Positions 5,648 to 40,250 of a stretch of DNA of 64,000 nt are shown here, piece after piece. The number at the start of each line of letters is the position of its first letter. The first letter of the stretch is position 1. The notes beneath the pieces were generated by a model. It saw only the letters and a list, made by a program, of their open reading frames with translations. It ran no database searches and was not told the DNA's origin. Source of the stretch: Candidatus Pacearchaeota archaeon CG10_big_fil_rev_8_21_14_0_10_34_76 (lineage in GTDB: Archaea; Nanobdellota; Nanobdellia; Pacearchaeales; GW2011-AR1); NCBI GenBank assembly GCA_002763075.1, contig PFDB01000015.1:5747-69746 (forward strand). Reading direction: 5' to 3'. The position numbers were made by a program, and so were the translations under genes.

Positions 5648-5908
5648 GTGTAGGCAAGCTGGCGCGCTAGCCCTGCGCTATCTGCAAATGGGCTTTATGG
5701 CAGGCTTAAAGGAGTGCGTGATGCAGAAGCATATTAGTCTTCAGCCGGACGTTGAAGCTTTGTCCTGTTCGACCGTACTCCTGTGAAATGGGTCAGGCCT
5801 TGATCGGAGCAGCCCTAAGCAGAAGTTTCGGTGCTTATAGGGTAGCAAAGCAGAGAAAGGTTTGAAGGGTGCTGATGTGCCCAAGCTGAGCAATCTCCCC
5901 GCCTACAC
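5648..5908 (+). ncRNA. Signal recognition particle RNA (archaeal 7S/SRP RNA)
   Basis: Sharply GC-richer block with no ORF. The ends pair (GTGTAGGC 5648-5655 with GCCTACAC 5901-5908). An internal GGGTCAGGCC...GGAGCAGCCC segment resembles the conserved helix-8 (S-domain) motif. Exact ends are uncertain. Confidence 0.8.
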
Positions 5909-6304: not shown

Positions 6305-6838
6305 ATGAGTGTGATGAACAAAAGAGGGCAATTTTTTCTTATTGCAGCATTGGTAATAGTTGGAGTTCTGATTGGACTATCTGTAGTTGTGAATGAAGTT
6401 ATTGTCAAAGAAGATAAAGAATATTTTTATGACATTTCTAGTGAAGTAGGATATGAAACCAAAAGAGTGATGGATTTTGGAGAGTATAGGGACGGGTTTG
6501 AATCTAAAGAGCTGACAAGCAGGTTCTTGTTTGATTATGTAAATTATATAGGACAAGATCCAGTGATATTTATATATGGGAATAGCACAGATGTTTCTGC
6601 ATTTGTGTTTCAAGAGCAAGATGTGGGTTCAATAGGATTAAACACTGGAGAAGAAAAGATCATCCCAATACAGAAGAGGAAGGATGGTGGAAAAGAAGCA
6701 AATGTTCTTGTAAAAAATGGAAAAGTGAGTATTGAAATAGATAGCGTGAATCATGAGTTTGAGATGAATGAGGGAAATAATCTGTTTTACATAATCATGA
6801 GGGAGGAGAATGATGAAAAGCTTGTTGCTGAAGGATAA
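6305..6838 (+). CDS. Archaeal type IV pilin-like protein (class III signal peptide)
   Basis: N-terminus is MSVMNKRG|QFFLIAALVIVGVLIGLSVVV: basic leader, Gly, Gln at +1, then a hydrophobic helix. An alternative start is ATG 6314 (MNKRGQ...). Confidence 0.75.
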   Translation: MSVMNKRGQFFLIAALVIVGVLIGLSVVVNEVIVKEDKEYFYDISSEVGYETKRVMDFGEYRDGFESKELTSRFLFDYVNYIGQDPVIFIYGNSTDVSAFVFQEQDVGSIGLNTGEEKIIPIQKRKDGGKEANVLVKNGKVSIEIDSVNHEFEMNEGNNLFYIIMREENDEKLVAEG

Positions 6839-7331
6839 GATGGGAGTTAGTATAATGGTAGGGTATGTCTTGCTTATAGTCATGGCTATCGGTATGGCAG
6901 GCATCGTGTATTCTTACCTCAAGTTTTATGTTCCTTCTGATAGGGCGGAATGCCCTGAAGATGTAAACCTTGCAATAGCCGAAGCAAGTTGTATTGGAGG
7001 AATACTTAGTATAAGCCTTGAAAATCGTGGATTGTTCAGCGTTGATGGAGCTTATGTTAAGATAGGAGAAGCTAATAGAACAGTTAGAGAGACAATGTGT
7101 TTCAATGGACCTCCTAGTGGAAATAATCAGTGCGATATTATTTTTGGGCTTGGGATAGAAGGATTAAAGCCAGGAGAGTTTTTAGATAAATCTTTTGATT
7201 ATAGTGCTTATGGTAACGAATATTTGCCTGGAGAGAAAGAGCTTGAAATACAGCCAGTTGTTATAAACAAAAAAAATGAGTGGCTGATATGCAAACAGGC
7301 AATAGTAACAAAGACTATAAGATGCACGTAA
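6810..7331 (+). CDS. Pilin-like protein (divergent class III signal peptide)
   Basis: N-terminus is MMKSLLLKDKMG|VSIMVGYVLLIVMAIGMAGIVYSY, resembling the archaeal pilin/flagellin N-terminal GVSPVIG-hydrophobic pattern. GGGAGGAG lies just upstream of 6810/6813. Overlaps the previous ORF by 29 nt; alternative start at 6840. Confidence 0.6.
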   Translation: MMKSLLLKDKMGVSIMVGYVLLIVMAIGMAGIVYSYLKFYVPSDRAECPEDVNLAIAEASCIGGILSISLENRGLFSVDGAYVKIGEANRTVRETMCFNGPPSGNNQCDIIFGLGIEGLKPGEFLDKSFDYSAYGNEYLPGEKELEIQPVVINKKNEWLICKQAIVTKTIRCT

Positions 7332-7362
7332 CAATTAAAAAGCAAGGGAGACTATATTGATT

Positions 7363-8847
7363 ATGCTTAAAAAAAGAGGTATAAGTCCAATCATAGCAAG
7401 TGTTTTGCTTGTATTGATTGTTGTAGTGCTTGCAGCTATTTTTGCAGTTTATGGATTGCCTTTTGTACAGAATTTATTTGGAAGTGAAGATTGTTTTGAA
7501 GTGCTTGGAGATATTAATTTTGACAAGTCATCCAATTATAATTGTTATTATGACGACGAGAGTGGACAAAAAAGGACTGGATTTTCTGTGAAGATTGATA
7601 ATGAGGGAGTGAAGGGATTTAGAGTTGGATTATTGCATGAAGGATCTTCAGATGTGATTGATATAACTCAGGATTCAACTTTTCCAATTATTAGGATGAT
7701 TGATGGGGTTTTTGGTGGAGCATTAAATATAAACAATAAAGGTGGAGTTAGAATATATGTTGCAAATGGAATTTTTGAAAGGATTGACATGTTTCCTATT
7801 CTTTCAAATGGAAAAGTATGTACTGATTCAAGCAAGGCTCTTGAGCCTGTAGAATGTCTTGATATAGATGTGAGGAATAGCTTGCATGATGATGAGGGAG
7901 ATAGTGGAAATGGAGAATGTACATTAAATAGCGCTTATTGGTCTAATTCTAATGGGGGAGCTCTTAGTATATTGACTGTAGATGAGGGAACAAGAGTTTA
8001 TCTTACAACAACTGGAAGTGAGGAATGTAATGATAAAGATGTTAATCTTGAGATATGGGAGGATGATTCATCAGATCCTGATAAATTGAATTATTCTCCT
8101 ACAGCAACATTTGTTAATGGAAAAGCAATAGTTTCATGGGATGCAGAATGGCAATGTGATGGATTTAACCTTTTTGGATATTGCTTCTCGGATCCCCCTG
8201 AATATTACTTTGAGTCTAGTCTTGTAGAAGACAATTCTAAGAGTATAAGTAGCTCTAAAATTGAAGAAGATGAATTAAAAGTTCTTAGAACTGAACCAGT
8301 GTGTGGTAATCAGAGGATTGAATCTGGAGAAACTTGTGATCCTCCTAGTGATGATGAAGTTTCTTGTCAGACTTCCGAAGGGTATGATGGGACAAGAACC
8401 TGCTTGAACAGTTGCCAATATGATGAATGTAATACTGACCAATTCTGTGGGGATGGAGAGGTTAATGGTGGTGAGAACTGCATAACTTGTCCTGAAGATG
8501 CTGGACAATGTCCTCAGTGTACATTAGATTCAGATTGTGATGATAATAATATTTGTAATGGTCAAGAAACCTGTGATGTTGATGGGCAATGTGTTTCTGG
8601 AACACAATTACAATGTGGAGTTTATCAGTGTTATCCTGATACTGGATGTGGTTTCTGCGGAGATGGAGAGGTTAATGGTGATGAACAGTGTGAAATAGGA
8701 GATAGTCGGTTGTGTTTGTCAGATGGAACAAGTGGAGATGCAGGAGGATTGGGAGGATTTAGTGGAATGGCACCGGGAAGTGGAAATGATGGAACGCAAA
8801 CATGCACTGCTCAATGCACATGGGATGAATGTGTTGCTGACCCATGA
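7363..8847 (+). CDS. Pilin-adhesin fusion: archaeal pilin N-terminus plus C-terminal Cys-rich CGDG-repeat domain
   Basis: Track start 7357 is TTG; ATG at 7363 gives MLKKRG|ISPIIASVLLVLIVVVLAAIF. The C-terminal ~180 aa (from 8302) has many Cys with repeats VCGNQRIESGETCD, FCGDGEVNGGENC and FCGDGEVNGDEQC. Confidence 0.8.
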   Translation: MLKKRGISPIIASVLLVLIVVVLAAIFAVYGLPFVQNLFGSEDCFEVLGDINFDKSSNYNCYYDDESGQKRTGFSVKIDNEGVKGFRVGLLHEGSSDVIDITQDSTFPIIRMIDGVFGGALNINNKGGVRIYVANGIFERIDMFPILSNGKVCTDSSKALEPVECLDIDVRNSLHDDEGDSGNGECTLNSAYWSNSNGGALSILTVDEGTRVYLTTTGSEECNDKDVNLEIWEDDSSDPDKLNYSPTATFVNGKAIVSWDAEWQCDGFNLFGYCFSDPPEYYFESSLVEDNSKSISSSKIEEDELKVLRTEPVCGNQRIESGETCDPPSDDEVSCQTSEGYDGTRTCLNSCQYDECNTDQFCGDGEVNGGENCITCPEDAGQCPQCTLDSDCDDNNICNGQETCDVDGQCVSGTQLQCGVYQCYPDTGCGFCGDGEVNGDEQCEIGDSRLCLSDGTSGDAGGLGGFSGMAPGSGNDGTQTCTAQCTWDECVADP

Positions 8848-8865
8848 TGAATTTATTTAGATTAA

Positions 8866-8899
8866 AAAGATATAAAAAGAATTTTTGTTAGGTATAAAT
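8866..8899 (+). promoter_or_regulatory. Promoter (TATA GATATAAAAAG) giving a leaderless or near-leaderless pilin mRNA; copy A of a duplicated 34-nt upstream element
   Basis: AAAGATATAAAAAGAATTTTTGTTAGGTATAAAT lies directly before ATG 8900. The TATA centre is about 26 nt from the ATG. Copy B is at 9357..9390 with 4 mismatches. Confidence 0.55.
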
Positions 8900-9346
8900 A
8901 TGAAAAAAAGAGGTCTTAGTCCAATAATTGCTACGGTTCTGCTTATTGCTATTGTTTTTGTACTAGCAGCAATAATATTTTTATGGGCAAGAGGATTTGC
9001 TGCTGAGAAAGTTGCAAAATTTGGAGAGCCTGTTCAGAGAGCGTGCGATAGGGTAAAATTTGAGGCAGGGATATATGATGACGGAGGTACATTGGAGATA
9101 AATAATCAAGGAGAAATCCCTCTTTTTGGATTTGACGTGAGAAAATTAAAATCTGGTGAAGAGACTGTAACCGAATATACTGAAAGATCTATTGGGAGTG
9201 GGGAATCTACCACTATTGACATATCTGAGGGAGGTTTTTCTGCAGGAGATGATTTGATTGTAATTCCCATAGTATTAGGACAGGCTGATGCTGGAAAGGT
9301 TGCATATTCATGTGAAGATAATGTTGGAATCTATCTCACAGTTTAA
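8900..9346 (+). CDS. Archaeal type IV pilin (candidate major pilin)
   Basis: MKKRG|LSPIIATVLLIAIVFVLAAIIFLW. Small (148 aa), with its own promoter. Track start 8885 is TTG. Confidence 0.8.
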   Translation: MKKRGLSPIIATVLLIAIVFVLAAIIFLWARGFAAEKVAKFGEPVQRACDRVKFEAGIYDDGGTLEINNQGEIPLFGFDVRKLKSGEETVTEYTERSIGSGESTTIDISEGGFSAGDDLIVIPIVLGQADAGKVAYSCEDNVGIYLTV

Positions 9347-9356
9347 TTATTCAGAG

Positions 9357-9390
9357 AAAGATATAAAAAGAAGTTTTGATGAATATAAAT
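9357..9390 (+). promoter_or_regulatory. Promoter, copy B of the duplicated pilin upstream element
   Basis: AAAGATATAAAAAGAAGTTTTGATGAATATAAAT lies directly before ATG 9391, with the same TATA-to-ATG spacing as copy A. Confidence 0.5.
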
Positions 9391-9948
9391 ATGGTGATAA
9401 ATAAAAGAGGTATAAGTCCTATAATTGCTACAGTGCTTATTCTCCTTATTACTTTCGTGGCCATCAGTATTCTGGCTGTGTTTGTAGTGCCTTTCGTGAG
9501 TGAAAGTCTGGAAGGAAGTGAGGAATGTTTTGATATTCTTGGACATGTGACATTTGATGAGAGCCCATATAATTGTAATATTGGGGGGACACTGGGGGAT
9601 GGAAGTGAAGGTGAGAGGACTGGATTTTCAGTTAGAGTTGGAGGAGAGGATATTTCTGGACTTAAGATTGCATTATATAATGAGGGAAGTTCTGAAGTTG
9701 TTGAATTTTTAAATGGCACTATAGGAAACACTCTTTCTTCAAAACTTAGAATGTTGAATGGACTCTTTAGTGAGGGACTTGAAATGCCTAAGAAAGGCGG
9801 AGTTAGGACATATGTTGCTGAAGGTCTTTTTGAAAAGATAGAAGTGAGTGCAAGATTGAAATCAGGAAAAACTTGTGATTTAAGTGATTCTATAGAATTG
9901 AATACTTGTTTAGATAATGATGCAGTTAGCAAGATCCTCGCAAGTTAA
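9391..9948 (+). CDS. Archaeal type IV pilin, paralog of the N-terminal half of 7363..8847
   Basis: MVINKRG|ISPIIATVLILLITFVAISILAVF. The body aligns by eye with 7363 (ECFDILGHVTFD / DCFEVLGDINFD; ERTGFSV; EGSSEVVEF / EGSSDVIDI; KKGGVRTYVAEGLFEKIEV / NKGGVRIYVANGIFERIDM). Start could also be 9379. Confidence 0.8.
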   Translation: MVINKRGISPIIATVLILLITFVAISILAVFVVPFVSESLEGSEECFDILGHVTFDESPYNCNIGGTLGDGSEGERTGFSVRVGGEDISGLKIALYNEGSSEVVEFLNGTIGNTLSSKLRMLNGLFSEGLEMPKKGGVRTYVAEGLFEKIEVSARLKSGKTCDLSDSIELNTCLDNDAVSKILAS

Positions 9949-9949
9949 A

Positions 9950-10477
9950 ATGAGATCAAAATCTGGACAAGTTTGGATTGAGACAGTCATTTATACATTG
10001 ATAGGCCTATCTTTAATTGCTGTTGTTCTTGCTATTGTAACTCCAAAGATAAATGAGTATAAAGATAAGAGTGTGATTGAGCAAACAATATCTTCTTTTA
10101 ATGAAATGGATTCTAAAATAAAAGAATCTCTTGCAGGAGGTGTTGGGAATGCAAGAACTGTAGAGTTTAGGATGAAAAGAGGAGAAATCTATTTTGATAG
10201 AGAGAAAGATATAATATATTACATAATGGACGATAGCGATGTATTGTACTCTGAACCTGACGTTGAGACAAGTATTGGGAGAGTTAAAATATTGACACAG
10301 GAAGGTCAGAAGAAAAATACTGTCAAGTTGACTATTGAATATCAACAAAATATTACTTTTGAAGGTGTTGAGGATATAATAATATTCACTCCCTCTAGCG
10401 TACCTTATAAGTTTAGATTTGAAAATGGCGGTTTTTCCCCAGAAGGAAGGCAAATTGTCAATTTTGAGAAGATTTAG
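9950..10477 (+). CDS. Minor pilin-like protein (Gln+1, Glu+5)
   Basis: ATG at 9950 immediately follows the previous stop. MRSKSG|QVWIETVIYTLIGLSLIAVVLAIV. The track start 9917 would overlap the upstream gene. Confidence 0.7.
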   Translation: MRSKSGQVWIETVIYTLIGLSLIAVVLAIVTPKINEYKDKSVIEQTISSFNEMDSKIKESLAGGVGNARTVEFRMKRGEIYFDREKDIIYYIMDDSDVLYSEPDVETSIGRVKILTQEGQKKNTVKLTIEYQQNITFEGVEDIIIFTPSSVPYKFRFENGGFSPEGRQIVNFEKI

Positions 10478-10524
10478 GCATAATTTAATAAATCCCATAA
10501 AGTTAGTATTATAAAGAGGTTAAG

Positions 10525-12051
10525 ATGACAATAAGCATAAATATTCGTCCAAGTGTTCCACCATTAAGCAAGGCAGAAGATAGGACAAAGGTAGATGTAA
10601 GATACTCACTGATAGCACCATATGCTAATGTTCATATATACTGGGATGATGATACTGGAGAGATGATCTATGAGCTTGAAGAGCCATTGTTGAATGATGA
10701 CCAGAAGAAAATTCTTAAAAAACTTGAAGAGTCTATGCTTGAGCTTATCAATATCAATGTTGCTGTAGATAACACTATGCAAAATCTCGTGGAGTATATA
10801 GACAGGACTGCAAGGCTTCTTATAGATGAACTTAACCTAAAGATTCCTGAAAGCATATATGAAAGAATATTTTACTTTTTATACAGAGATTTTATAGGCA
10901 TGAACGAAATAGACCCACTGCTTAAAGATTATTTTATAGAGGATATAGAATGCAATGGAGTTGACACCCCCGTATATATTGTACATAGAGTTTATAGGAA
11001 CATGAGAACTAATGTGGTATTCAAGGATGTTGATTATCTTGCCAGTTTTGTTGAGAAGCTTGCTCAGAGGAGCGGAAAATATGTCTCTTATGCAAATCCC
11101 TTATTAGACGGAAGCCTTCCTGATGGGAGCAGAATAAATGCTACATATACAAAAGATGTGACATCTAGAGGACCTACATTCACAATCAGAAAATTCACAA
11201 GGGTACCTTGGACACCAACACAGCTTATTGCATTGAATACATTAAGTCCTGAAATGTTGTCCTATCTTTGGTTATTGATAGAGTATAAATCAAATATTTT
11301 AATTACTGGGGGAACTTCTTCTGGAAAGACTACTCTTCTAAATGCATTGGCATTTTTTATTCCTCCTGAAGCAAGAGTCATTAGTATTGAAGACACAAGA
11401 GAGCTGAATTTACCTAGAGAAAATTGGCTTCCTGCTGTGTCTAGAACTTCTGTAGGAATGGGAAAGGTCGGGGAAGTAGATTTGTTTGATTTACTAAAGA
11501 ACTCATTCAGGCAAAACCCTGATTATGTTATTGTGGGAGAAGTTAGAGGAAAAGAGGCTTATGTACTCTTTCAGGGAATGTCCTCTGGTCATCCGTCAAT
11601 AAGCACACTTCACGCTGATTCTATAGATACAGTAATCCGAAGATTACAGACTCCCCCTATAAATCTTTCACCAACTCTGGTTAATTCTTTAGATTGTATA
11701 GCTGTGATGACTCATGCTATTGTGAAAAATAAACACACTAGAAGACTAAGAGAGCTGGTTGAAGTTGTAAATGTCGATAAAGACGGGTCTGCATTGATAA
11801 ACACCCCATTTGTCTGGGAGCCAGGCAGAGATGTATTTTATTTCAAAAAACAAAGTAAGGTATTTGAGAAGATATCTGCAAGATATGGATTGACAATGGA
11901 AGAATTACAGAGAGAATTCTTGCATAGGTCGAGATTAATGTATAATCTCTTCAAGCAGGGAATATTTGGGTTCGCAGAAATTCAGAAAATAATTAATGAC
12001 TATCATAAAGATTCAGATGTTATATTGAAGAAATTTAAAGTAGTTAGTTGA
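10525..12051 (+). CDS. Type IV pilus/secretion assembly ATPase (FlaI/PilB/VirB11 superfamily)
   Basis: Walker A GGTSSGKTTLLNAL, Asp box ISIEDTRELNL, Walker B DYVIVGEVRGKEA, His box GHPSISTLHADS. AGAGGT Shine-Dalgarno-like sequence upstream. Confidence 0.92.
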   Translation: MTISINIRPSVPPLSKAEDRTKVDVRYSLIAPYANVHIYWDDDTGEMIYELEEPLLNDDQKKILKKLEESMLELININVAVDNTMQNLVEYIDRTARLLIDELNLKIPESIYERIFYFLYRDFIGMNEIDPLLKDYFIEDIECNGVDTPVYIVHRVYRNMRTNVVFKDVDYLASFVEKLAQRSGKYVSYANPLLDGSLPDGSRINATYTKDVTSRGPTFTIRKFTRVPWTPTQLIALNTLSPEMLSYLWLLIEYKSNILITGGTSSGKTTLLNALAFFIPPEARVISIEDTRELNLPRENWLPAVSRTSVGMGKVGEVDLFDLLKNSFRQNPDYVIVGEVRGKEAYVLFQGMSSGHPSISTLHADSIDTVIRRLQTPPINLSPTLVNSLDCIAVMTHAIVKNKHTRRLRELVEVVNVDKDGSALINTPFVWEPGRDVFYFKKQSKVFEKISARYGLTMEELQREFLHRSRLMYNLFKQGIFGFAEIQKIINDYHKDSDVILKKFKVVS

Positions 12052-12084
12052 AAACTATATAAATAGTATTTGTCTTTCTTATAA

Positions 12085-12249
12085 ATGAATAAACAAGAGG
12101 TTGTGTTATTGCTCCAGCTTTTGCATTCTATGAAAGATGTTGGTGATAGAATAGAAAAGTCTTATGAAATGAACAATTTTGAAGAGCTTGAATCTGCTAA
12201 AAAGGAAATGACATCGTTACAGAAAAAGATTGATGAAACCTTAAAATGA
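12085..12249 (+). CDS. Small (54 aa) coiled-coil protein, translationally coupled to the platform gene
   Basis: Not in the ORF track because it is under 60 aa. Translates as MNKQEVVLLLQLLHSMKDVGDRIEKSYEMNNFEELESAKKEMTSLQKKIDETLK. Its TGA (12247-12249) overlaps the ATG of the next gene (12246) as ATGA. Confidence 0.45.
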   Translation: MNKQEVVLLLQLLHSMKDVGDRIEKSYEMNNFEELESAKKEMTSLQKKIDETLK

Positions 12250-13580: not shown

Positions 13581-13622
13581 AATGAGAATAAAAATTATAT
13601 ACTCTATAATGTTTGTCTATGG

Positions 13623-16583: not shown

Positions 16584-16620
16584 AGAAAACGTTTATAAAA
16601 TATAAAGTTCTTATTTAATA

Positions 16621-17382: not shown

Positions 17383-17384
17383 AA

Positions 17385-20300
17385 ATGTTAAATAAAAAAA
17401 GAGTGATTTTCTTTGGTTTAATTATATTTGTAATTGTTTTTTATTCTTCTCCGATTAGAGCTGGACCTTATGGTTACGGTGATAGCATGGACTTAAAGTA
17501 TGTCATAGGTGATGAAAAAATAATTTATGGTTATGGAGGGGGTATTAAGTATGAGACCTCTTTGAGGCCCCTGGATCAGAATTGGAGTACATGGGTTCCT
17601 GAATCGAGAAGAAGAATTATTGAGGAAAGCTGGGAGAACATTTATAATAGTGTGAATGGATTTAAACCCTCTAAAACTACACTCTCTAATGAACTCTTTT
17701 TTGATCCTTTGATTTTGGAGAAATTTACAAATCAAACAGAAGTATACGTTACAGTCATGTTAAGAGATGAAAGTGGAATGAGTTATAAAAATTCTCAAAA
17801 AACTCAGTTAGAAAAATTTTCAATTTATAAGACAAAGGCCGAATATTTTTCTAGATCTGAAGACGAAGTTATTTCAACATTAGACGAATCTGAATTTAGA
17901 TTAGATCATAAATTCAAGATAATCAATGCATTTAGTGGACGTATTACAAAACAGGGATTAGATAAGTTAATGACGAATCCAAATGTTATCTCTATAGAGA
18001 CTAATAAAGGAGTAAGTTTGGGGTTGGATGAGAGTATTCCCTTAGTGAATGCTACTGAGGCATGGAGTTTAGGATATTCTGGGGAAGGGGTTGCAGTTTG
18101 TGTTATAGATTCTGGAATAAATTATACTCATCCCGCATTGGGCGGGTGTTTTGGAAATGGATGTAAGGTTGTTGATGGCTATGATTATTGTGCAAGTAGT
18201 AATTGTGGTTCTGAGGACGGCGATCCAATGGACGATGACGAATTCCTGGGAGGGCATGGGACTCATGTTGCAGGAATTGTGGCTTCAGAAGACTCAATAT
18301 ATAGAGGCGTTGCTCCAAATGCATCTCTTATTGCAATGAAAGCTTGTGTTGATGGTAGTTTTTGTGGAACTCAAGCAATAGAAAAAGCGGTTGATTGGTG
18401 TGTTGCTAATTCTAGTATTTATAATATTAAAGTTATAACGATGAGTATTTATGATCATACAGAATGGAGTTCTGATTGTAACCCTTCTGACAAATTGGCT
18501 GCTACTGCTGCGATAAATAATGCTCATGATGTAGGTATTTTTGTCGATGCAATCTCTGGAAATGATGGTCACACAGAGGGAATATCTTGGCCGGGTTGTG
18601 TTAGAGGAGCAACTTCGGTTGGAGCCACGACCAAACAAGATAACCTTTGGGCAAATACAAACAGGGGTCCCAACCTTGATTTACTTGCTCCAGGAGTTTC
18701 CATAAGATCAACTAATTATCGTTGGGAAAGTCAATCTGATTTTGTACTTCAAAGCGGGACAAGCATGGCTGCTCCTCATGTTGCGGGAGCTGTAGCCATC
18801 CTTTTGGAAAAAGATCCTAGTTTAATGCCAGATGAAATCGAACAAATTTTACAAGAAACAGGAAAACAAATTCAAGGAAGTAGTTGGAAAAGAATAGATG
18901 TTGCAAATGCTACTCGAGATATTTGCCAAGTTGGTACATGGCAGGCAGGGTCTTGCGGAGGAGGCTCATGCAATAGTCTCCAAAGAGAATATACCAGAAC
19001 TGTTGATCCTCCAATGTGCGATATTTCAACAATGTGTGAATATGATGAAAGTTGTGTTGGTTCCACCATCACAGTTTGTGCAAGTGGATGCGATTATACA
19101 ACGATCCAGGCAGGATTAAATGTAGCCACTAATGGTGATTTAGTTAAGGTTACAGATGGTGGCACATATAGTGAAACAATTAATTGGTCCACATCAGATA
19201 ATGGAGTTATATTAAATTGTCAGGGAGCTACCATTACAACTTCCTCTCGTATGACTATACATGAAAAAGAAGGTGAAGTTGTAATGAATTGTATATTTAA
19301 TGCCTCAAATGGAGTTAAAATGACTGGAGACGGAGTGGGGAATGAATTCTTGAATAATATTTTTGATATTGAAGAAAAGGGAATAAATTCACAAGGAGAT
19401 AGTAGTGGAGATACTGGGCGCACCTATATAGAAAATAATATAATAATCAATGCTGACGAAGAAGGAATAATAATTCATCATACTAGCGGGAGTTCTTCTG
19501 GAGGAAATAATAAATTATTCAACAACAAGATATTCAATACAAATTATGCTATATGGTTTGAAGATAGTTCATTTAATAACCTCTCAGGTAATGTAATTGA
19601 GAATAATTTTCGAGGGATTTATCTTGATGCAAGTAGTGCGGGAGATGATAGAGAAGCGTATATAGAAAATAATAATATATCAAATAACGATTATGGAGTT
19701 TATATACAAAATCAAGATAAGGTCAACGTGAATGGCAATTATTTTTGCTCTCAGAATTCAATCTATGATATTTTTGCTACAGGAATGTATGATTTCTCGG
19801 GGGGTTCGCAAAATAGGTGTGAAAATACTGCTAATTGGAATGATACCAATTATGTTGGGTGTACATACTTTTGTGATACTCCTGCATCAGTCATTCTTCT
19901 TGACCCCCTTAATGGATCTCAAGATGCTGATGGTAACATTGACCTTGCGTGCTACGCTTCAGATAATTATCAATTAAAAAATATCACCCTCTACCACGAT
20001 ATTTCTGGGGCCTGGCAAGCTAATCAAACTAAAGAAATAGGTGGAATTTCTAATATAACAACATTTACATTTAATAATTTAGAAGATGGCACTAACTTTA
20101 ATTGGAATTGCCTTGCTTATGATAATGTGTCAAGAGGAAGCTTTGCTATCAATAATTGGTCTCTTTATATAAATATCACGCCTAATAACCCTCCAACTAC
20201 GCCTAATTCCCTTCTCTGTGACGAAGAATTATGTTCTGACAATAGAACATTTTCTAATACGATTGAGATAAATTGTACTGGTTCTACTGATGAAGAAGGA

Positions 20301-21875
20301 AATATAATAACTTATTTTACTGAAGCATTTTATAAAAACGATGATTTGATATTGATTAATACATTTAATAATTCTATAGAAACAGAAAACTTGACTTTTA
20401 CAGGAAATGAAAATATAATTAGATACTTGGAGATCTCCAAGAATGCTAATGTTTTAAATGCCACTCTTAATTTAACTGGGACCTCACAAAATAATTCTAT
20501 TTTTTCTGAGGCTAATGCATATTATGATTTTGAAGATGGTTCTGGAACTACTTTAACAGATTTGGCAGGAATTAATGATGGAACATTAAATAATATGGAG
20601 GACTCTGATTGGAAAGATCCAAAACTCGGAGATTTTGGATTAAATTTTGATGGGTTGGATGAATATATTAATATTTTGGATAGTTCTGCGCTAGACCTTT
20701 CAGAGGGAAGTGTTTCTATGTGGGTCAATCGAACTGACAACACTGATGACATGTATTTGATTACTAAAGGTAATGGAAATGGACCAACACAAAATTATGA
20801 AATGAGATATGACGTAAGTACTGAGGGATTTGTTTTGGGCGTTGGAAACGGGATTTCTCAAAGTGCTGCTGTAAGGGCTGGGATCATAGGGCAAGGAACA
20901 TACCATCATGTAATATTTACTTGGAATAGCACCAGTCTTGATATTTGGTTGGATGGAGTTCATGAAGGTTTACAAACACACACTGTTTCAATCGCCAGTA
21001 ATTCTGAACCATTTAAGATAGCAAGTGAAAGAGGAGACTCATTTGGGAATTACTGGGATGGTTCGCTAGATGAAATAGGGATATGGAATAGAGTTTTGTC
21101 ATCACAGGAAATTGTAGATTTATATAATGGTGGAAATGGAAAACATTTCTCTCAAAGTCCAACCAATCCTTATTTAGAGATTGGTAGTGTCGATGGTTTT
21201 AGGGAATGGGAATATGCAGGAGTATTTAATCATTCTAATAATAGAACAGAAGATTTTTCTAGCGCAGTAAACCTTTCTCTCAATGGAGGCTCCTGTAATT
21301 GTACCGGCTGTGTCTTAAATGATAATTTATGTTTAATTCCCTTTTTATTCCACTCTGATTCAGTTGGGATTATTGAATATAATGATTTAGATATAAGTTA
21401 CACGTTGGATGAACAATCTTGGAGAGAAATAGGTAACAATTCAGAAAATTCTACATTCAACTGGAACATAAGTGGATTAGAGACACAATTTAATGTAGAT
21501 TTGAGATGCAGAGCAATTGATATTGATGGAAGTAATAATTATTCAAACTATTATAACCCTGGAACCAATATAACAATTATAGGTCCTGGATTAGTTATTT
21601 CGGATCTTGATGTTGTTTATATGAATAATCTTAATAGGGTCTTTAGGTTTGTAATAACAAATATAGTTAATTCTGAATTAGAAAATATTGTTTGGTCTTT
21701 GGATACTGGAGAATCTAATATATCCTCTGAATATAATTCAACATTACAATCAAATGAAGATTTATTTGTCTATGCATTCTATAATTATACAAGCTCAGGA
21801 AATTATACTGTAATTGCAAGCACAATGAGTGATGAATTTTCAGATACCGAAAGCTTGGAGATAGAGGTAATATGA
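17385..21875 (+). CDS. Giant (1496 aa) subtilisin-family (S8) serine protease with beta-helix (PbH1) repeats and LamG/concanavalin-like domain
   Basis: Catalytic triad motifs VCVIDSGINYTHP (Asp), GHGTHVAGIVAS (His), SGTSMAAPHVAGAVAILL (Ser). NNI/NN-rich parallel beta-helix repeats around aa 640-790. Laminin_G_3-like block LNFDGLDEYI...SMWVNRTD...YHHVIFTWNSTSLDIWLDGV...WDGSLDEIGIWNRVLSSQEIVDLYNGG. Confidence 0.9.
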   Translation: MLNKKRVIFFGLIIFVIVFYSSPIRAGPYGYGDSMDLKYVIGDEKIIYGYGGGIKYETSLRPLDQNWSTWVPESRRRIIEESWENIYNSVNGFKPSKTTLSNELFFDPLILEKFTNQTEVYVTVMLRDESGMSYKNSQKTQLEKFSIYKTKAEYFSRSEDEVISTLDESEFRLDHKFKIINAFSGRITKQGLDKLMTNPNVISIETNKGVSLGLDESIPLVNATEAWSLGYSGEGVAVCVIDSGINYTHPALGGCFGNGCKVVDGYDYCASSNCGSEDGDPMDDDEFLGGHGTHVAGIVASEDSIYRGVAPNASLIAMKACVDGSFCGTQAIEKAVDWCVANSSIYNIKVITMSIYDHTEWSSDCNPSDKLAATAAINNAHDVGIFVDAISGNDGHTEGISWPGCVRGATSVGATTKQDNLWANTNRGPNLDLLAPGVSIRSTNYRWESQSDFVLQSGTSMAAPHVAGAVAILLEKDPSLMPDEIEQILQETGKQIQGSSWKRIDVANATRDICQVGTWQAGSCGGGSCNSLQREYTRTVDPPMCDISTMCEYDESCVGSTITVCASGCDYTTIQAGLNVATNGDLVKVTDGGTYSETINWSTSDNGVILNCQGATITTSSRMTIHEKEGEVVMNCIFNASNGVKMTGDGVGNEFLNNIFDIEEKGINSQGDSSGDTGRTYIENNIIINADEEGIIIHHTSGSSSGGNNKLFNNKIFNTNYAIWFEDSSFNNLSGNVIENNFRGIYLDASSAGDDREAYIENNNISNNDYGVYIQNQDKVNVNGNYFCSQNSIYDIFATGMYDFSGGSQNRCENTANWNDTNYVGCTYFCDTPASVILLDPLNGSQDADGNIDLACYASDNYQLKNITLYHDISGAWQANQTKEIGGISNITTFTFNNLEDGTNFNWNCLAYDNVSRGSFAINNWSLYINITPNNPPTTPNSLLCDEELCSDNRTFSNTIEINCTGSTDEEGNIITYFTEAFYKNDDLILINTFNNSIETENLTFTGNENIIRYLEISKNANVLNATLNLTGTSQNNSIFSEANAYYDFEDGSGTTLTDLAGINDGTLNNMEDSDWKDPKLGDFGLNFDGLDEYINILDSSALDLSEGSVSMWVNRTDNTDDMYLITKGNGNGPTQNYEMRYDVSTEGFVLGVGNGISQSAAVRAGIIGQGTYHHVIFTWNSTSLDIWLDGVHEGLQTHTVSIASNSEPFKIASERGDSFGNYWDGSLDEIGIWNRVLSSQEIVDLYNGGNGKHFSQSPTNPYLEIGSVDGFREWEYAGVFNHSNNRTEDFSSAVNLSLNGGSCNCTGCVLNDNLCLIPFLFHSDSVGIIEYNDLDISYTLDEQSWREIGNNSENSTFNWNISGLETQFNVDLRCRAIDIDGSNNYSNYYNPGTNITIIGPGLVISDLDVVYMNNLNRVFRFVITNIVNSELENIVWSLDTGESNISSEYNSTLQSNEDLFVYAFYNYTSSGNYTVIASTMSDEFSDTESLEIEVI

Positions 21876-23416
21876 TGAGAAATAAGATAAGTTTAATGTT
21901 TGGAATAGTATTTTTACTTAGTGGAATGATTGGCTTAGTTTCGGCTATTGAATATGGTTCTAATTGGGACAAGAATTGTAACGGAAACCTTTGCCAAGTT
22001 AATGTGTATTCTTATGAAAAATACTGGAATGGAAATAATGGTTGGGAAGAGATAGATGAAAGTTTTTCAGATTGTTCTGCTGATGGAAGAACAAGATATT
22101 GTACTGAAGATTATCGTTTTAGAGCTATTGCTGATGATAACGGAACAGTTTCTGCATTTATAGGGAGTGAAGAATTTACAGTAAGGTTAAATGAATTGTT
22201 AGGGAGAAATGTTGATTTTATCCCAAGAATTAGCGAAAATATGATTTCTTATGATGATATTATTCCGGGTGTTGATTTGGTTTACACTTACCTGCCAAAC
22301 ATGTTCAAAGAAGAAATTGTGATAAACGAGCCATTACAAGGTCTTCCAGATAGAGACTTTGATATAACCTTTACTAAAAGAGGTAATGCTGATTTTGGAA
22401 TTAGAGACAGTATTATTTGTGACGCAAATGGGTTGTGTCAAGACCTTGAGCATTCTGTTGAGGGGAATCAAATAATTGTAACAATCCCAGTTTCTTTCCT
22501 TAACCATAAAGATGTGGTATATCCAGTAACTATTGATCCCACAATTGATCTGGGAGATACATCCATAGCCTGGGATGGTTATGTGTACAACGAGTCTGGA
22601 ACTCCAAATACATATACTAGAGTGGGGTCTCCAGTGAATTATATAAGTTTAGGCAATATTCTGACTCTTGGTGGAACAAGAATGGCTAAAGGAGACATAG
22701 ACTGGAATGTCTCAAGCATTCCAGATGGGTCTGTTGTTTATAACTTAAGTTTACAAATTTATGTAGACACTGCTTCTACTGGGACTCCAAATGTGACTTT
22801 GAATATCAGCCATATGAATGGTAATAACTTAACTTATGAAGATAATAGTACAGAGTGTTATGGGAACTGCCAGTTTTGGGAAGATATGGCTGATGGAACT
22901 CTTTATTATTCTGAGACTTTTGCTTCTGATGTTGTCAAGAATATAGATTTGGATTTAGCAATTTCTGATTTTGAAGGTTCTCTTGATTCAGATGTTTTCA
23001 GTGTTGGTTTTGATGGGCACTATCAAGTGAACAAAGATGTGAGAATTGGATCTAAAAATAATCCCAATTTAGGTTACAGACCTGTGCTTACAGTTGTTTA
23101 CGGAGTGAATGGAACTGATTCTGATGCAGCGATTGAAGAAGGCATATTTTATTCAGTGGTTGGGGGTGTTAATCCAATCTATAATAATCAACAGATTTAT
23201 CTTGTTAATGAATTGGGTACGCATTACACTGGAACATTTGATAAAGCAGTTGAAGAAGGTAATCAAATGTGGATATTCAATTATGTGATTCCTGGAGAGT
23301 CTTTCATTAACATGCCCTCACTATTTAATATTTTGAATGTTTGGGAAAACCAGTCCTTGAGTTATAGCGAGATTGTTGAACAGGTGAAGAGTTATATTAA
23401 TGGCACAATTTATTAA
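21872..23416 (+). CDS. Secreted hypothetical protein (514 aa), ATGA-coupled to the subtilase gene
   Basis: N-terminal signal anchor ISLMFGIVFLLSGMIGLVSA. The start overlaps the stop of 17385..21875. No catalytic motif recognised. Confidence 0.65.
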   Translation: MMRNKISLMFGIVFLLSGMIGLVSAIEYGSNWDKNCNGNLCQVNVYSYEKYWNGNNGWEEIDESFSDCSADGRTRYCTEDYRFRAIADDNGTVSAFIGSEEFTVRLNELLGRNVDFIPRISENMISYDDIIPGVDLVYTYLPNMFKEEIVINEPLQGLPDRDFDITFTKRGNADFGIRDSIICDANGLCQDLEHSVEGNQIIVTIPVSFLNHKDVVYPVTIDPTIDLGDTSIAWDGYVYNESGTPNTYTRVGSPVNYISLGNILTLGGTRMAKGDIDWNVSSIPDGSVVYNLSLQIYVDTASTGTPNVTLNISHMNGNNLTYEDNSTECYGNCQFWEDMADGTLYYSETFASDVVKNIDLDLAISDFEGSLDSDVFSVGFDGHYQVNKDVRIGSKNNPNLGYRPVLTVVYGVNGTDSDAAIEEGIFYSVVGGVNPIYNNQQIYLVNELGTHYTGTFDKAVEEGNQMWIFNYVIPGESFINMPSLFNILNVWENQSLSYSEIVEQVKSYINGTIY

Positions 23417-23435
23417 TTACAGAAAAGGGTAAATT

Positions 23436-24308
23436 ATGATGAGAATAAAAAAAATGCATTGGATAGGCGGGGTATTTGCTCTTATAATTCTTATTTCTAA
23501 TCTTATTTTCTTCAGGCAGGACAAGGTGTTCTTTTTTTTAATAGGGATATCTCTTGTTATTTTTCTTCTCCCTATCCTGACAAGTCTTGTTCTTGCTGGA
23601 AAAAGAGAGCAAGAGCTGAATCAACAATTCCTTGAATTTTCTAGAAATCTTGCTGAGAGCGTAAAATCTGGAACACCTATTGGGAAAAGTATTGTGAACA
23701 TGAGAAATAAAGATTTTGGCGTATTAAGTAAGTATGTGGAGAAACTTGCAAACCAGATATCTGTTGGAATTCCTATAAGCAAGGCAATGGATAGTTTTGC
23801 AAAGGACATTGATAGTATTGTTGTCAAAAGAGCAATAACCTTGATAAGAGAGGCTGAGAATGCTGGGGGAGAGATAAATCATATCCTTGAATCTGTTGCA
23901 AATTCTATTTATGAAGTGGAGAAACTCAAGAAAGAGAGGAAAAACGCAATATCAAGTCTTGTGGTTCAGGGATATATTATATTCTTTATTTTTCTTGGGA
24001 TAATGCTTATAATGGAATTTAAGATTCTTCCATTGACAGCTGATATAAGTTCTATTGGATCTTTTGGGAGTGCGGGAGACCTTAGTGGAACTATAGCTGC
24101 GGGAGGTTCATTAGCTGCTAGCGAGGCAAGTGTCTCTGCAGAAGCACTTGCAAGACCATTTCTTTATCTTTTATTAGTGCAGGGATTCTTTGTTGGCCTT
24201 ATAATAGGTAAACTCTCAGAAGGTTCTGTCAAATATGGAATAAAACATTCAATTATATTGTCCGTAATGGCTTTCCTTGTATCTACGGGATCTAGATTGT
24301 TTTTGTAG
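23436..24308 (+). CDS. Second pilus platform protein, single T2SSF domain (TadB/TadC-like)
   Basis: TM-cytoplasmic helical domain-TM layout. FLEFSRNLAESVKSGTPIGKSIVNM...KLANQISVGIPISKAMDSFAKDI...ITLIREAENAGGEINHILESVANSI fits the T2SSF pattern. Confidence 0.75.
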   Translation: MMRIKKMHWIGGVFALIILISNLIFFRQDKVFFFLIGISLVIFLLPILTSLVLAGKREQELNQQFLEFSRNLAESVKSGTPIGKSIVNMRNKDFGVLSKYVEKLANQISVGIPISKAMDSFAKDIDSIVVKRAITLIREAENAGGEINHILESVANSIYEVEKLKKERKNAISSLVVQGYIIFFIFLGIMLIMEFKILPLTADISSIGSFGSAGDLSGTIAAGGSLAASEASVSAEALARPFLYLLLVQGFFVGLIIGKLSEGSVKYGIKHSIILSVMAFLVSTGSRLFL

Positions 24309-24313
24309 GACAT

Positions 24314-25069
24314 TTAAGAATATTTTTTTATGATATAGAAGAATTCATTTTCTGAGGAAAAAGTCTCAAAGTCATATTTTAGTCTGGAAAGTAGTTTATC
24401 AAACCATTGCCTTCTTGGGGAGGCCATTCTTTTTCCAGAGATTTTTCTTGTGGAGAAACTGATTATCATCCAGTTGCAATTGACGCCTGTAAGTATTTTT
24501 TCTGCAATTTTGTGACCCTTTGATTCTATTATATCGAATACCTTGAAGATGAGGCAAAGGTCAGATTTTGGAAAATCAATTTCCTTGCGGAGGTCAAAAT
24601 AGAAAGCATTACCCTTTAGTTTGTTCATCTTAAAAAAATCGTTTATCAGTTCTAATTCGCTTTCTTTAATATCGCAAGCATAATAAGTTACATCTGGGGA
24701 TGCTAATGCAATGGGATTAAGCCCGCAACCAAGATCAAGAATAGATTTTGGTGATATTTTTTTTATCTTTTCTTTTAAAGCAGGATAAAAATCCAAGCGC
24801 TCTTTTGTAGAAGTATGGGACTTTAATATCTCCAAGATTTCTCCTTTTTTTAGCATGCTTTTTCTGTCAATCTGTTTATGTTGATATTGCCCAGTGTATT
24901 TTCTAAGTTCAGCCCTTATTTCCTTAAGAACAAATTTTTCCTGCTTTTTTCCTTTTATCTCCTTTATATTGTTCTTTGAGATGTAAGAATCTAATAAATC
25001 AGATATAAAACTATCAGGGATATCTCTAAATTCTTTCTTATTCTTTATCTTGACTATTATATCTTCCAT
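24314..25069 (-). CDS. 16S rRNA (guanine1405-N7) methyltransferase family homolog (ArmA/Rmt/FmrO-like)
   Basis: 251 aa. By-eye colinear matches to remembered ArmA/RmtB blocks: IKNKKEFRDIPDSFISDLL, HTSTKERL, SILDLGCGLNPIAL (SAM motif I), YYACDI, DLCLIFKVFDIIE, MIISFSTRKISGKRMAS, RRQWFDKL, NEFFYIIKK. Confidence 0.75.
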   Translation of the reverse strand: MEDIIVKIKNKKEFRDIPDSFISDLLDSYISKNNIKEIKGKKQEKFVLKEIRAELRKYTGQYQHKQIDRKSMLKKGEILEILKSHTSTKERLDFYPALKEKIKKISPKSILDLGCGLNPIALASPDVTYYACDIKESELELINDFFKMNKLKGNAFYFDLRKEIDFPKSDLCLIFKVFDIIESKGHKIAEKILTGVNCNWMIISFSTRKISGKRMASPRRQWFDKLLSRLKYDFETFSSENEFFYIIKKYS

Positions 25070-25088
25070 ATATGATTTAAAAGGAAGT

Positions 25089-25098
25089 TATTTAAATA
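25089..25098 (+). promoter_or_regulatory. TATA box for the leaderless 25118 pilin-like gene
   Basis: TATTTAAATA is centred about 24 nt upstream of ATG 25118. Confidence 0.45.
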
Positions 25099-25117
25099 AT
25101 ATCTTGTTTGGGTATCT

Positions 25118-25807
25118 ATGAATAAAAGAGGGATGGGCCATATAGAGGTTATTTTGGCAATTGTTATTTTTGTAGGATTTGTGGTGTTTGCTCTTTATTT
25201 TCTAAATCCACTGGAAACAGATAGAATTGTTGAATCATCCCTTACATACGGGATTGATGAGATATCAGATAAGATTGAAAGTGATATGATTAGTTATTCT
25301 GTTGTTTTTAAGGATGTCAATGCTAATATTGTTTCAATACCCTTACAAAACTCTGAAAATTTTAAGATAAGGGTAGAAACAAATGAGGGGCAAAAGCTCA
25401 ATTCTAAATATTCTGGAGGCAGAGTGGTGTTGAACAGGGCAGGAAATGAATTTGTTATTGTAAAATTTTCGGAGTTTTATAATGAAGATTTATTGTCTGG
25501 AGAAGTTCTTCTAGGTCCTGAAAACTTTAGCATTTCAAGTTCTGGGAAACAGAAAGTATGGAGTGAAGAAAAAGCCTTGGAATTGAATGAGAGTTATTTT
25601 GAAGATTATCAGGCTCTTAAAAAAGAGTTTAATCTTCCCGGAAGAGTCAATTTTGGATTTTCATTTGATGTTCTTGACGGAAATAGTTTTAGAAGTGAAA
25701 ATCCAGTACCTGATGGACTGGAAGTATTTACTAAAAGTGAAAGAAGGGAAACAATAAGATCTGATGAGAGTATGGGTTTTGCAGATTTGACTGTTTCAGT
25801 CTGGTGA
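25118..25807 (+). CDS. Minor pilin-like protein (Glu+5)
   Basis: MNKRG|MGHIEVILAIVIFVGFVVFALYFL. Confidence 0.7.
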   Translation: MNKRGMGHIEVILAIVIFVGFVVFALYFLNPLETDRIVESSLTYGIDEISDKIESDMISYSVVFKDVNANIVSIPLQNSENFKIRVETNEGQKLNSKYSGGRVVLNRAGNEFVIVKFSEFYNEDLLSGEVLLGPENFSISSSGKQKVWSEEKALELNESYFEDYQALKKEFNLPGRVNFGFSFDVLDGNSFRSENPVPDGLEVFTKSERRETIRSDESMGFADLTVSVW

Positions 25808-25808
25808 T

Positions 25809-26204
25809 ATGAATAAAAAAGGATTTATGAAGATAGTTGAAGCAAGCATATCTATTTTGATAATAGCTGGGATGCTATTTTTTATTCTTGCTAAGACAAA
25901 GGCAGGAGCAATATCTCCAGATTATGATGAGAGCGCAAGAGATTTTTTAGAAGAAATATCCAAGAATGCTAGTTTAAGACAGGCTGTTTTAGAAGGAAAT
26001 ATTGAAGATATTGAAGAATTTATGGACAGAAGACTTCCTCTTGGAAGTGTGAATTATGATTTTACAATATGTGATATAAATGCTGTTTGTGGCCTCGATA
26101 AATATGTTGAAGGAGAGGTCTTTGCACAAGAGAGAGTTATTAGCGCAGATATAAGAAATGATTTTTCCCCTAAAAAGTTAAGAATTTTTATATGGCAAAA
26201 GTGA
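25809..26204 (+). CDS. Minor pilin-like protein
   Basis: MNKKG|FMKIVEASISILIIAGMLFFILA. Begins 1 nt after the previous stop. Confidence 0.65.
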   Translation: MNKKGFMKIVEASISILIIAGMLFFILAKTKAGAISPDYDESARDFLEEISKNASLRQAVLEGNIEDIEEFMDRRLPLGSVNYDFTICDINAVCGLDKYVEGEVFAQERVISADIRNDFSPKKLRIFIWQK

Positions 26205-40116: not shown

Positions 40117-40250
40117 TCTACAACCTCTCCGGGTTCTAGGTCCACGAGAGCAGGACTCTCGGTCCATCCAACTCTTGCGAGTTGTATGAGTCCAGGTGAA
40201 ACAGCCAAGGACACCTCTCCGGGTGTATTTGACATTGAGGGCCTCTCTTT
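40117..40250 (-). ncRNA. Candidate structured RNA or structured 5' leader of the presenilin-like gene (class unknown)
   Basis: GC-rich island in an AT-rich intergenic region. On the minus strand: GNRA hairpin CAACUC-GCAA-GAGUUG (40169-40184) enclosed by GGACUC/GAGUCC (40153-58 / 40188-93). A competing hairpin CGAGAG-UCCUG-CUCUCG sits at 40145-40161. A 12-nt direct repeat is at 40123-34 and 40213-24. Confidence 0.35.

Follow-up and report, generated by a model that had tools for sequence, protein, structure and literature searches.

Islands of pilus genes in DPANN archaea have been described in which an ATPase and TadB- and TadC-like genes accompany surface proteins and small, unannotated, leader-bearing proteins that were read as divergent pilins (PMC6393860). 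Fission of the platform gene is known from the Epd and Tad systems (PMC6668835), from several archaeal clades (PMC4858521), and from DPANN systems (bioRxiv 10.64898/2026.04.22.720090); many loci of the euryarchaeal-type pili of Makarova's 'clade 2' carry a pair of genes that are tadC-like, some 'nanoarchaea' fall within that clade, and the peptidase gene lies away from the pilus locus in many archaea (PMC4858521). System 1, to which the Epd pilus of Methanococcus and bacterial Tad belong, has been listed in DPANN (bioRxiv 10.64898/2026.04.22.720090), and the EppA-dependent archaeal pilins carry Gln+1 and Glu+5 in a QXSXEXXXL motif (PMC2910488). The present study examined a 64,000-nucleotide (nt) stretch of contig PFDB01000015.1 from Candidatus Pacearchaeota archaeon CG10_big_fil_rev_8_21_14_0_10_34_76 (hereafter the window), in which a first-pass annotation had described positions 6305-26204 as a type IV pilus-like island that embeds large adhesin and protease genes between its two platform genes. 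We find that in this region a DPANN archaeon of the Pacearchaeota/Woesearchaeota type very probably encodes its standard set of type IV pilus (type IV filament) operons, into which a lineage-specific insertion has entered.

The region comprises eight conserved pilin-like genes (pil1 to pil8), a FlaI/PilB-type ATPase gene, and two single-domain T2SSF genes, here called T2SSF_A and T2SSF_B. All open reading frames (ORFs) listed in the first-pass annotation were present where it had placed them, and domain matches confirmed its report of two single-domain T2SSF genes about 10 kb apart with four secreted-protein genes between them; these four lie on the same strand and encode proteins of 986, 253, 1496, and 514 amino acids (aa). 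Using the ATPase as a query, we retrieved 48 related loci from metagenome-assembled genomes (MAGs) of Pacearchaeota, Woesearchaeota, and Nanoarchaeota at 55-80% identity, and gene order within them was established by tblastn and ORF mapping. The order kept in these relatives is pil1, pil2, (pil3), pil4, pil5, pil6, ATPase, a small ORF, T2SSF_A, and T2SSF_B, followed in one subclade by an opposite-strand Rmt/FmrO-like methyltransferase gene and then by pil7, pil8, archease, and RtcB. T2SSF_A and T2SSF_B were neighbours in all 41 genome loci having both genes (median gap 1 bp, maximum 882 bp) and in all 63 of the further loci having both that were found in a metagenome scan with T2SSF_B, none of which contained homologues of the four intervening genes within 10 kb. 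Because the two genes are adjacent in these 41 genome and 63 metagenome loci, their separation by 9,855 bp in the window is unique among 105 loci, and in none of the 104 related loci do the four genes occur together with the pilus machinery. The first-pass annotation had itself proposed that absence of the giant genes from the equivalent locus of all relatives would mark them as a random insertion, and the comparison across relatives returned that outcome. Its description of a platform split into two genes separated by cargo merged an old, known fission with an unrelated, lineage-specific insertion of 9.86 kb.

The junctions of the inserted block (13595-23438, + strand; 9,857 bp with one repeat copy counted) carry the two copies of a 13-nt direct repeat, ATGAGAATAAAAA, the left copy at 13582-13594 (+), 1 nt past the T2SSF_A stop, and the right copy at 23439-23451 (+), which forms the actual 5' end of T2SSF_B (M-R-I-K...). 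No third copy exists in the 64 kb, and a 13-mer would be shared by random pairs of windows of this size at a rate of 4e-4. In relatives, the junction consists of the T2SSF_A stop, one nucleotide (usually A), and ATG A.A ... AAA AAA; in the window the single nucleotide is A, and the left copy, a remnant of the ancestral T2SSF_B start, occupies the position of the T2SSF_B ATG of these relatives and is followed by unrelated sequence from 13595 on. An exact 13-nt direct repeat at both junctions has the form of a target-site duplication, and ATGAGAATAAAAA marks the block as a 9,857-bp insertion 13 nt into T2SSF_B, a gene whose start was restored by the duplication. No terminal inverted repeats were found at the ends of the insert, and a Pfam scan of the four inserted proteins returned no integrase or transposase domains. 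A classical transposon was rejected as the vehicle given the lack of terminal inverted repeats and the fact that the inserted ORFs all encode surface proteins; the block may have arrived by way of an unrecognised element or by microhomology-mediated recombination. The duplicated T2SSF_B start and the adjoining insert sequence form a 14-codon remnant ORF (13582-13626, +; MRIKIIYSIMFVYG and a stop) that begins one nucleotide past the T2SSF_A stop and ends in a stop overlapping the 986-aa gene's ATG, an arrangement that could allow translational coupling to that gene.

Since the window derives from a metagenome and the block is unique to its lineage, mis-assembly might be suspected of having joined the 10-kb block to the pilus operon. 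We consider such a chimera extremely improbable, as the same arrangement was assembled independently, from the same population, in at least five other datasets: the order T2SSF_A, 986, 253, 1496, 514, T2SSF_B was recovered in JGI 3300004209, 3300004210, and 3300025150 (on a 261-kb contig) and in Logan SRR6240789, and the junction of the 514-aa gene with T2SSF_B was also present in ENA ERZ27293412 (from the 1496-aa gene onward) and in JGI 3300004208, where a 3,040-bp contig is 100% identical across it. GC content is uniform, and a 13-nt duplication at the exact start of an ancestral gene is a biological signature. We therefore read the 9.86-kb block, on the strength of these sequence comparisons, as a recent, lineage-specific insertion into an otherwise standard pilus operon. 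The operon tolerates passenger genes in relatives that are clearly unrelated to it, as in locus L028, where two GNAT genes lie between T2SSF_A and T2SSF_B and a MazF toxin and a kinase gene lie between the ATPase and the small ORF, and in L035, where the operon includes an M23 peptidase gene. The spacer at the T2SSF_A-T2SSF_B junction of L001, the closest relative, was considered as a remnant of the insert and ruled out, as it encodes an unrelated membrane ORF of about 88 aa.

The split of the platform itself is an old and already described fission and the normal state of this pilus family. T2SSF_A (12246-13580, +; the N-half, with a cytoplasmic N-terminal extension of about 175 aa) and T2SSF_B (23436-24308, +; the C-half) each matched the T2SSF model with one domain, at 2e-15 and 6e-16, as the first-pass annotation had expected. 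Residues 212-442 of T2SSF_A correspond to positions 22-248 of the 555-position ArlJ/FlaJ profile (NCBIfam) and residues 2-284 of T2SSF_B to positions 264-544; because these are successive stretches of one profile, the two proteins are collinear halves of a two-domain FlaJ/TadC-type platform. T2SSF_B is full length and 69% identical to its counterpart in L001. The ATPase at 10525-12051 (+), which had been called FlaI-type, is indeed a FlaI/PilB-family secretion ATPase, i.e., a pilus assembly motor (T2SSE 4e-32, with a weak PilB3_C match), and its best matches among PDB structures were afGspE (2OAP; 7.6e-115, 387 bits), FlaI (8e-81, 275 bits), and CpaF (3e-46, 161 bits). In several relatives (L040-L047), the pilus ATPase is interrupted by inteins (Intein_splicing and LAGLIDADG_3 domains, e.g., L046:7007-9982 and L047:2141-5278) at two sites, after about residue 222 and about residue 291; the ATPase of the window contains none. 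The small ORF between motor and platform, p54 (12085-12249, +), was missing from the first-pass list and encodes a 54-aa helical cytoplasmic protein, probably a coiled coil, whose stop overlaps the T2SSF_A start (ATGA). It is preceded by a TATA-like box at -27 with a 7/8 match, and its homologues lie directly 5' of T2SSF_A in at least 35 loci, including those where other genes part p54 from the ATPase; p54 is a probable, previously unrecognised cytoplasmic component of the pilus system.

Nine N-termini of the region had been listed as class III leaders, each a short basic stretch ending in Gly ahead of a hydrophobic helix, and this held for eight of them: three pass a curated model and five carry conserved class III-like motifs, while the ninth, that of the 986-aa protein, matched no pilin profile and is at most a putative class III leader. 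The eight belong to families that keep their positions across 14-44 related loci and that show family-specific motifs at the putative cleavage site (arrows below), and when the 64 kb were scanned for strict N-termini of this type, i.e., K or R, then G, then a hydrophobic stretch, on single-anchor proteins, they were confined to 6305-26204. Those of pil3, pil4, and pil5 exceed the curated 20-bit cutoff set for TIGR02537, a model of the N-terminal domain of archaellins and type IV pilins. The canonical archaeal pilins among them are pil4 (8885-9346, +, likely start 8900; KRG↓LSPIIATVLL; 42.8 bits; 35 orthologues) and pil5 (9376-9948, +, likely start 9391; KRG↓ISPIIATVLI; 28.0 bits; 32 orthologues). 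The TATA-like element of pil4, GATATAAAAAG, is common to pil5, and the elements of about 35 nt ahead of the two genes (8865-8899 and 9356-9390) are near-identical, reading AAAGATATAAAAAGAA(T/G)TTTTG...ATAAAT ATG; this near-identity suggests duplicated strong promoters and makes pil4 and pil5 candidate major pilins. A paralogue of pil5, pil3 (7357-8847, +, likely start 7363; TIGR02537 32.4 bits; Pilin_N 25.0 against a cutoff of 25.2), consists of a pilin N-terminus, a pil5-like domain, and a Cys-rich C-terminal extension, a layout that suggests an adhesin-like pilin. Full-length pil3 orthologues occur in L001 and L002, and in L004 the corresponding position is taken by a long pil5-like pilin of 584 aa. 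Because relatives hold pil2-, pil3-, and pil5-like proteins of 400-677 aa, fusions of pilins to adhesin-like regions are normal in this clade.

The remaining five families, pil1, pil2, pil6, pil7, and pil8, are marked by conserved (K/R)G↓ motifs in 14-44 orthologues and match no curated pilin model, pil2 being a partial case. The minor-pilin-like pil1 (6305-6838, +; ...KRG↓QFFLIAA; weak DUF7261 match) keeps a (K/R)G↓Q(F/I)(F/Y)L motif in orthologues from at least 14 loci. The leader of pil2 (6810-7331, +) reads ...KMG↓VSIMVGYVLL, with KKG↓VS(I/L)M(I/V)GYVLL in orthologues; its N-terminal profile matches the pil4 family at 5e-8, and in some relatives the protein is fused to extensions of 400-625 aa. 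The most conserved pilin-like protein is pil6 (9917-10477, +, likely start 9950; G↓QVWIETVIYTLIGL), with 44 orthologues in the loci and invariant Gln+1 (Q8), Trp+3 (W10), and Glu+5 (E12) across 43 sequences; its homologues form 154 clusters in the protein database, all labelled DPANN and several named 'pseudopilin PulG' by JGI. An AlphaFold2 model of pil6 (mean predicted local distance difference test, pLDDT, 94.8) has a 59-residue N-terminal helix followed by a beta-sandwich, and since a Foldseek search against the PDB gave no significant fold match, its assignment as a pilin fold is drawn from this architecture. Downstream of the platform genes are pil7 (25118-25807, +; KRG↓MGHIE, with Glu+5; 26 orthologues and 8 more through the N-terminal profile), in which the motif is G↓xxH(I/V)E in near relatives and has Gly in place of Glu in distant ones, and pil8 (25809-26204, +; KKG↓FMKIVEA, with Glu+6), whose 33 orthologues carry G↓W(L/I)RIVEA. 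Glu+5, which had been pointed out as a bacterial hallmark, is conserved in the pil6 and pil7 families as claimed and is not exclusively bacterial, being part of the archaeal QXSXEXXXL motif (PMC2910488).

The first inserted gene (13623-16583, +) encodes the 986-aa protein, an S-layer-derived surface protein identified through its homologues and NF033662 repeats, with an N-terminal hydrophobic anchor and no Pfam match. Through an internal duplication it has the S-layer core once in full and a second time in part; it also has acidic double-disulfide repeats, and it is without the C-terminal S_layer_C part. Searches of genome contigs with the single 986-aa or 514-aa sequence found no close relatives; relatives on genome contigs were retrieved with a 7-sequence alignment as the query. 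The homologues P0007, P0010, P0013, and P0015 are proteins of about 800 aa with PF05124 (S_layer_C) and Sec leaders, and no pilus gene is present in the loci of the two closest homologues, P0002 and P0003. The N-terminus of the 986-aa protein follows a generic K-G-G plus hydrophobic pattern and matched none of six pilin N-terminal profiles. A secondary insertion might still have brought in a true class III substrate, the 986-aa protein then being processed by the prepilin peptidase and serving as a species-specific adhesin, either built into the pilus at its tip or base or anchored beside it. Its leader does consist of a short basic stretch, Gly, and a hydrophobic segment; the P0003 leader, MNKRG↓LVGIE, resembles the KRG↓MGHIE of pil7 and gives a weak score with the profile of that family (E = 6, rank 71); and pilins with large extracellular domains recur in the clade, as described above for pil3 and its long relatives. 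We nevertheless consider this partial co-option unlikely: no profile matches the 986-aa protein, the P0002 leader has M-G and no Glu, the canonical homologues use Sec leaders, P0002 and P0003 lie outside pilus loci, and an ordinary signal anchor at the N-terminus accounts for the sequence just as well. If it were true, this species would have in the 986-aa protein an adhesin of its own, associated with the pilus and used in host contact.

The other three inserted proteins have leaders that by inspection are Sec-type, with a basic n-region, a hydrophobic core, and a cleavage site of small residues, and with no Gly or Ala immediately ahead of the hydrophobic core. The 253-aa protein (16621-17382, +) has a transthyretin/CarboxypepD_reg-like domain (weak CarboxypepD_reg, SdrD_B, and SpaA matches), its C-terminal transmembrane (TM) anchor being assigned, like its Sec leader, by inspection. 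The 1496-aa protein (17385-21875, +) is a secreted subtilase (Peptidase_S8 5e-44, Laminin_G_3 7e-22, Inhibitor_I9) laid out as an I9 propeptide, an S8 domain, a parallel beta-helix (by a repeat match), a LamG domain, and a conserved C-terminal domain of about 100 aa. The 514-aa protein, p514 (21872-23416, +), is a secreted beta-sandwich protein with a domain like a carbohydrate-binding module (CBM) and is the partner gene of the preceding giant; its family comprises about 43 clusters, its AlphaFold2 model (pLDDT 80) is all-beta and multidomain with a CBM-like jelly roll, and Foldseek matched it to a chondroitin-sulfate CBM (8wab, TMt 0.65) and an alginate CBM (7vbo). The genes that follow P0003 (251 aa and 501 aa) bear no similarity to the 253-aa and 514-aa genes of the window, and there is therefore no conserved four-gene cassette.

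A smaller unit does recur. Homologues of p514 directly follow a large secreted protein in five loci, four of them distinct (L061, L062/L065, L064, and L066, the last in an Aenigmarchaeota MAG), and these otherwise unrelated giants end in about 100 aa that share 33-59% identity with the C-terminus of the 1496-aa protein. The bodies of these giants vary, being RHS/FG-GAP/TcdB/LamG, FG-GAP/fn3, or a 450-aa protein, and no pilus genes were found near the p514 homologues in these loci. Because it recurs with varied bodies in other DPANN genomes, the giant with the conserved C-terminal domain together with p514 makes up a portable two-gene unit (window 21475-23416), which may represent a separate surface-protein system of DPANN archaea and is worth a study of its own. 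Two of these loci adjoin TrbC/TrbL/TraC-like (conjugation-like) genes, and some members of the p514 family carry RHS, LVIVD, beta-helix, or LamG extensions as fusions.

In this genome, a TTTAWATA-like box starting 26-31 nt ahead of the ATG, which is a leaderless pattern, precedes many genes. Both the 986-aa and the 253-aa genes have a 7/8 TATA-like match at leaderless distance (at -29 for the 253-aa gene; background 1.6%), and no such box was found at that distance before the 1496-aa and 514-aa genes, which are spaced from the preceding genes by +2 and -4 nt. The insert would accordingly be made up of two autonomous transcription units, the 986-aa gene and a 253-1496-514 three-gene unit.

Several observations weigh against reading the block as a passenger in a standard operon. 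The inserted genes run in the direction of the operon and sit close together, their spacing ranging from 42 bp to an overlap of 4 bp; the TATA-like match upstream of T2SSF_B is only 6/8 (background 12.5%), and because this box is weak, expression of T2SSF_B may need read-through from the inserted genes, which would couple their transcription; the leaders of the 986-aa protein and P0003 look class III-like; and large adhesin- and S-layer-like genes recur in other archaeal pilus loci (PMC4858521; bioRxiv 10.64898/2026.04.22.720090). In addition, L026 has a small subtilase gene adjoining its pilus locus, and a prepilin peptidase was found neither in the 64-kb window nor in the flanks of the relatives' loci that were checked. 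The first four of these points also favour the proposal of the first-pass annotation, a single apparatus in which the split platform brackets its cargo and the pilus machinery displays or secretes the S-layer-like adhesin, the subtilase, and p514, the whole being an organelle for attachment to a host. This proposal did not survive the comparison and is very unlikely, as none of the 104 related loci contains the block, so that synteny refutes the proposal as an ancestral design; the duplication of the T2SSF_B start that bounds the block is the mark of a secondary insertion; the inserted genes have homologues outside pilus loci; the leaders of three of the inserted proteins are Sec-type; and the N-terminus of the fourth matches no pilin profile. 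Archaea of this type, moreover, have a single membrane and need no second export step like that of a type II secretion system (T2SS). We consider it unlikely, too, that the insertion has since been co-opted, whether through transcriptional coupling of T2SSF_B to the inserted genes or through the 986-aa protein acting as a pilus-associated adhesin. Because T2SSF_B lies 3' of the insert and lacks a convincing promoter of its own, piliation could under such coupling be tied to expression of the S-layer-derived adhesin and the subtilase-p514 pair.

On the preferred reading, that of a standard pilus operon with a passenger insertion, the FlaI/PilB-family ATPase would form the hexamer that powers the system, acting through the two-polypeptide membrane platform of T2SSF_A and T2SSF_B, and p54 would be translationally coupled to T2SSF_A. 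The machine would draw pilins from the membrane after their processing by a prepilin peptidase encoded elsewhere, with pil4 and pil5 as the likely main subunits, pil3 as a pilin bearing a Cys-rich, adhesin-like extension, and pil1, pil2, pil6, pil7, and pil8 as minor pilins. In this species alone, the 9,857-bp block entered 13 nt into T2SSF_B, the 13-nt duplication restoring the start, and the two self-contained surface-protein units of the block would be exported by Sec as passengers that are neither substrates nor parts of the pilus machine. The sequences show which genes are present and conserved, where the insertion begins and ends, and that its modules occur elsewhere; we infer the pilin roles, the Sec route, and the use of the promoters, and a function of the pilus in adhesion or host contact is a reasonable inference from DPANN biology.

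What might be taken for cargo embedded in a split platform, a tempting misreading, is cleared up as a recent passenger insertion and a normal split platform. The insertion offers a natural experiment, as the platform halves, normally translationally coupled, apparently still work 9.9 kb apart. The conserved core of pil1, pil2, pil4, pil5, pil6, ATPase, p54, T2SSF_A, T2SSF_B, pil7, and pil8 is common to more than 100 Pacearchaeota/Woesearchaeota-type loci and is therefore a well-defined target for studying host attachment by these episymbionts.

The window as a whole is AT-rich archaeal DNA (GC about 0.35), and among its genes of archaeal type are those for FttA, a CCA-adding enzyme of the archaeal kind, and RtcB/archease. 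Between T2SSF_B and pil7 lies the Rmt/FmrO-like 16S rRNA methyltransferase gene (24314-25069, -; FmrO 8e-18; Rmt family 5e-36, below cutoff), found at the same position in about 25 relatives and probably an embedded housekeeping-type gene that is not part of the pilus. Its product is a homologue of 16S rRNA (G1405) methyltransferases, and the gene and the divergently oriented pil7 have a palindromic TTTAAATA box in common, which for pil7 is perfect and lies at -27. The first-pass statement that the window encodes no prepilin peptidase (PibD, FlaK, or EppA, Peptidase_A24 type) stands. The sole polytopic, protease-like ORF of the window (39181-40167, -) was rejected as a candidate, being a 9-TM protease of the presenilin/signal peptide peptidase (SPP) type (GxGD; SPP 1.8e-8, PSH model 1e-11), mechanistic kin of the prepilin peptidases outside their family; polytopic ORFs flanking the relatives' loci proved to be SpoIIM-like, a glycosyltransferase, or without known identity. 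Downstream of the pilus locus, two genes at 28141-30507 and 30504-33083 (+) encode large surface proteins (788 and 859 aa); both have a Sec leader and are anchored by a C-terminal TM segment, and one contains a PKD domain. The pair is kept downstream of the pilus locus in many relatives and directly after pil8 in one subclade. Two adjacent small paralogues (35391-35879 and 35944-36501, +) have common N-termini, ...K(H/Y)A FMILGAI..., that are not typical class III leaders, and Cys-containing C-termini. A signal recognition particle (SRP) RNA at 5650-5906 (+) matched the Bacteria_large_SRP model at 61.2 bits against a gathering score of 60, with no archaeal SRP model reported.

Compared with known systems, the locus has what marks an archaeal type IV pilus, namely a PilB/FlaI ATPase, a T2SSF platform covering FlaJ positions 22-544 of 555, and pilin leaders, and the first-pass reading of it as such a pilus and not an archaellum was upheld. 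Its likeness to the archaellum lies in the FlaI and FlaJ NCBIfam models being the best-scoring curated models for the ATPase and both platform halves; the scores, however, fall under the equivalog cutoffs (387 against 550 bits for the ATPase, 92 and 55 against 550 for the platform halves), no Pfam or NCBIfam match to FlaH, FlaF, FlaG, FlaCDE, or the Arch_flagellin domain was found in the locus, and the archaellum reading was rejected on these grounds. A T2SS-like machine would be expected to keep its cargo with its machinery, and the inserted genes accompany it in none of the 104 loci.

With the Epd/Tad group the locus shares a platform of two single-T2SSF genes arising from fission (PMC6668835), and the Gln+1 and Glu+5 of pil6 recall the motif of the EppA-dependent pilins (PMC2910488). 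In contrast to that group, the ORFs of 6305-26204 include neither an EppA-type peptidase nor a second, FlaH/TadZ-like ATPase, and a Flp/EpdE-like pilin of about 70 aa is likewise absent, the smallest pilin-like protein having 131 aa. In tad gene clusters, TadB precedes TadC. As TadB is C-half-like and TadC N-half-like (PMC6668835), the Tad order is the reverse of that in the window, where the N-half precedes the C-half, collinear with an unsplit gene. The ATPase also scores lower against CpaF (161 bits) than against afGspE (387) or FlaI (275), a ranking by bit score and not a tree. This ranking, with the A. fulgidus GspE-like 2OAP nearest and FlaI next, points to the euryarchaeal-type pili of clade 2 (e.g., Haloferax PilB3/PilC3) and away from Epd/Tad, and, as in clade 2, the pilins of the window have a TIGR02537/Pilin_N N-terminus and the ATPase a weak PilB3_C match; a MinD/FleN-like ATPase, by contrast, is absent from the locus. 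In composition the locus is the same as the islands of DPANN pilus 'dark matter' shown by Makarova, Wolf & Koonin (2019, Fig. 2A; PMC6393860); that work gives examples only, and the synteny across 104 loci, the 54-aa partner gene of the platform, and the insertion are what the present analysis adds to it.

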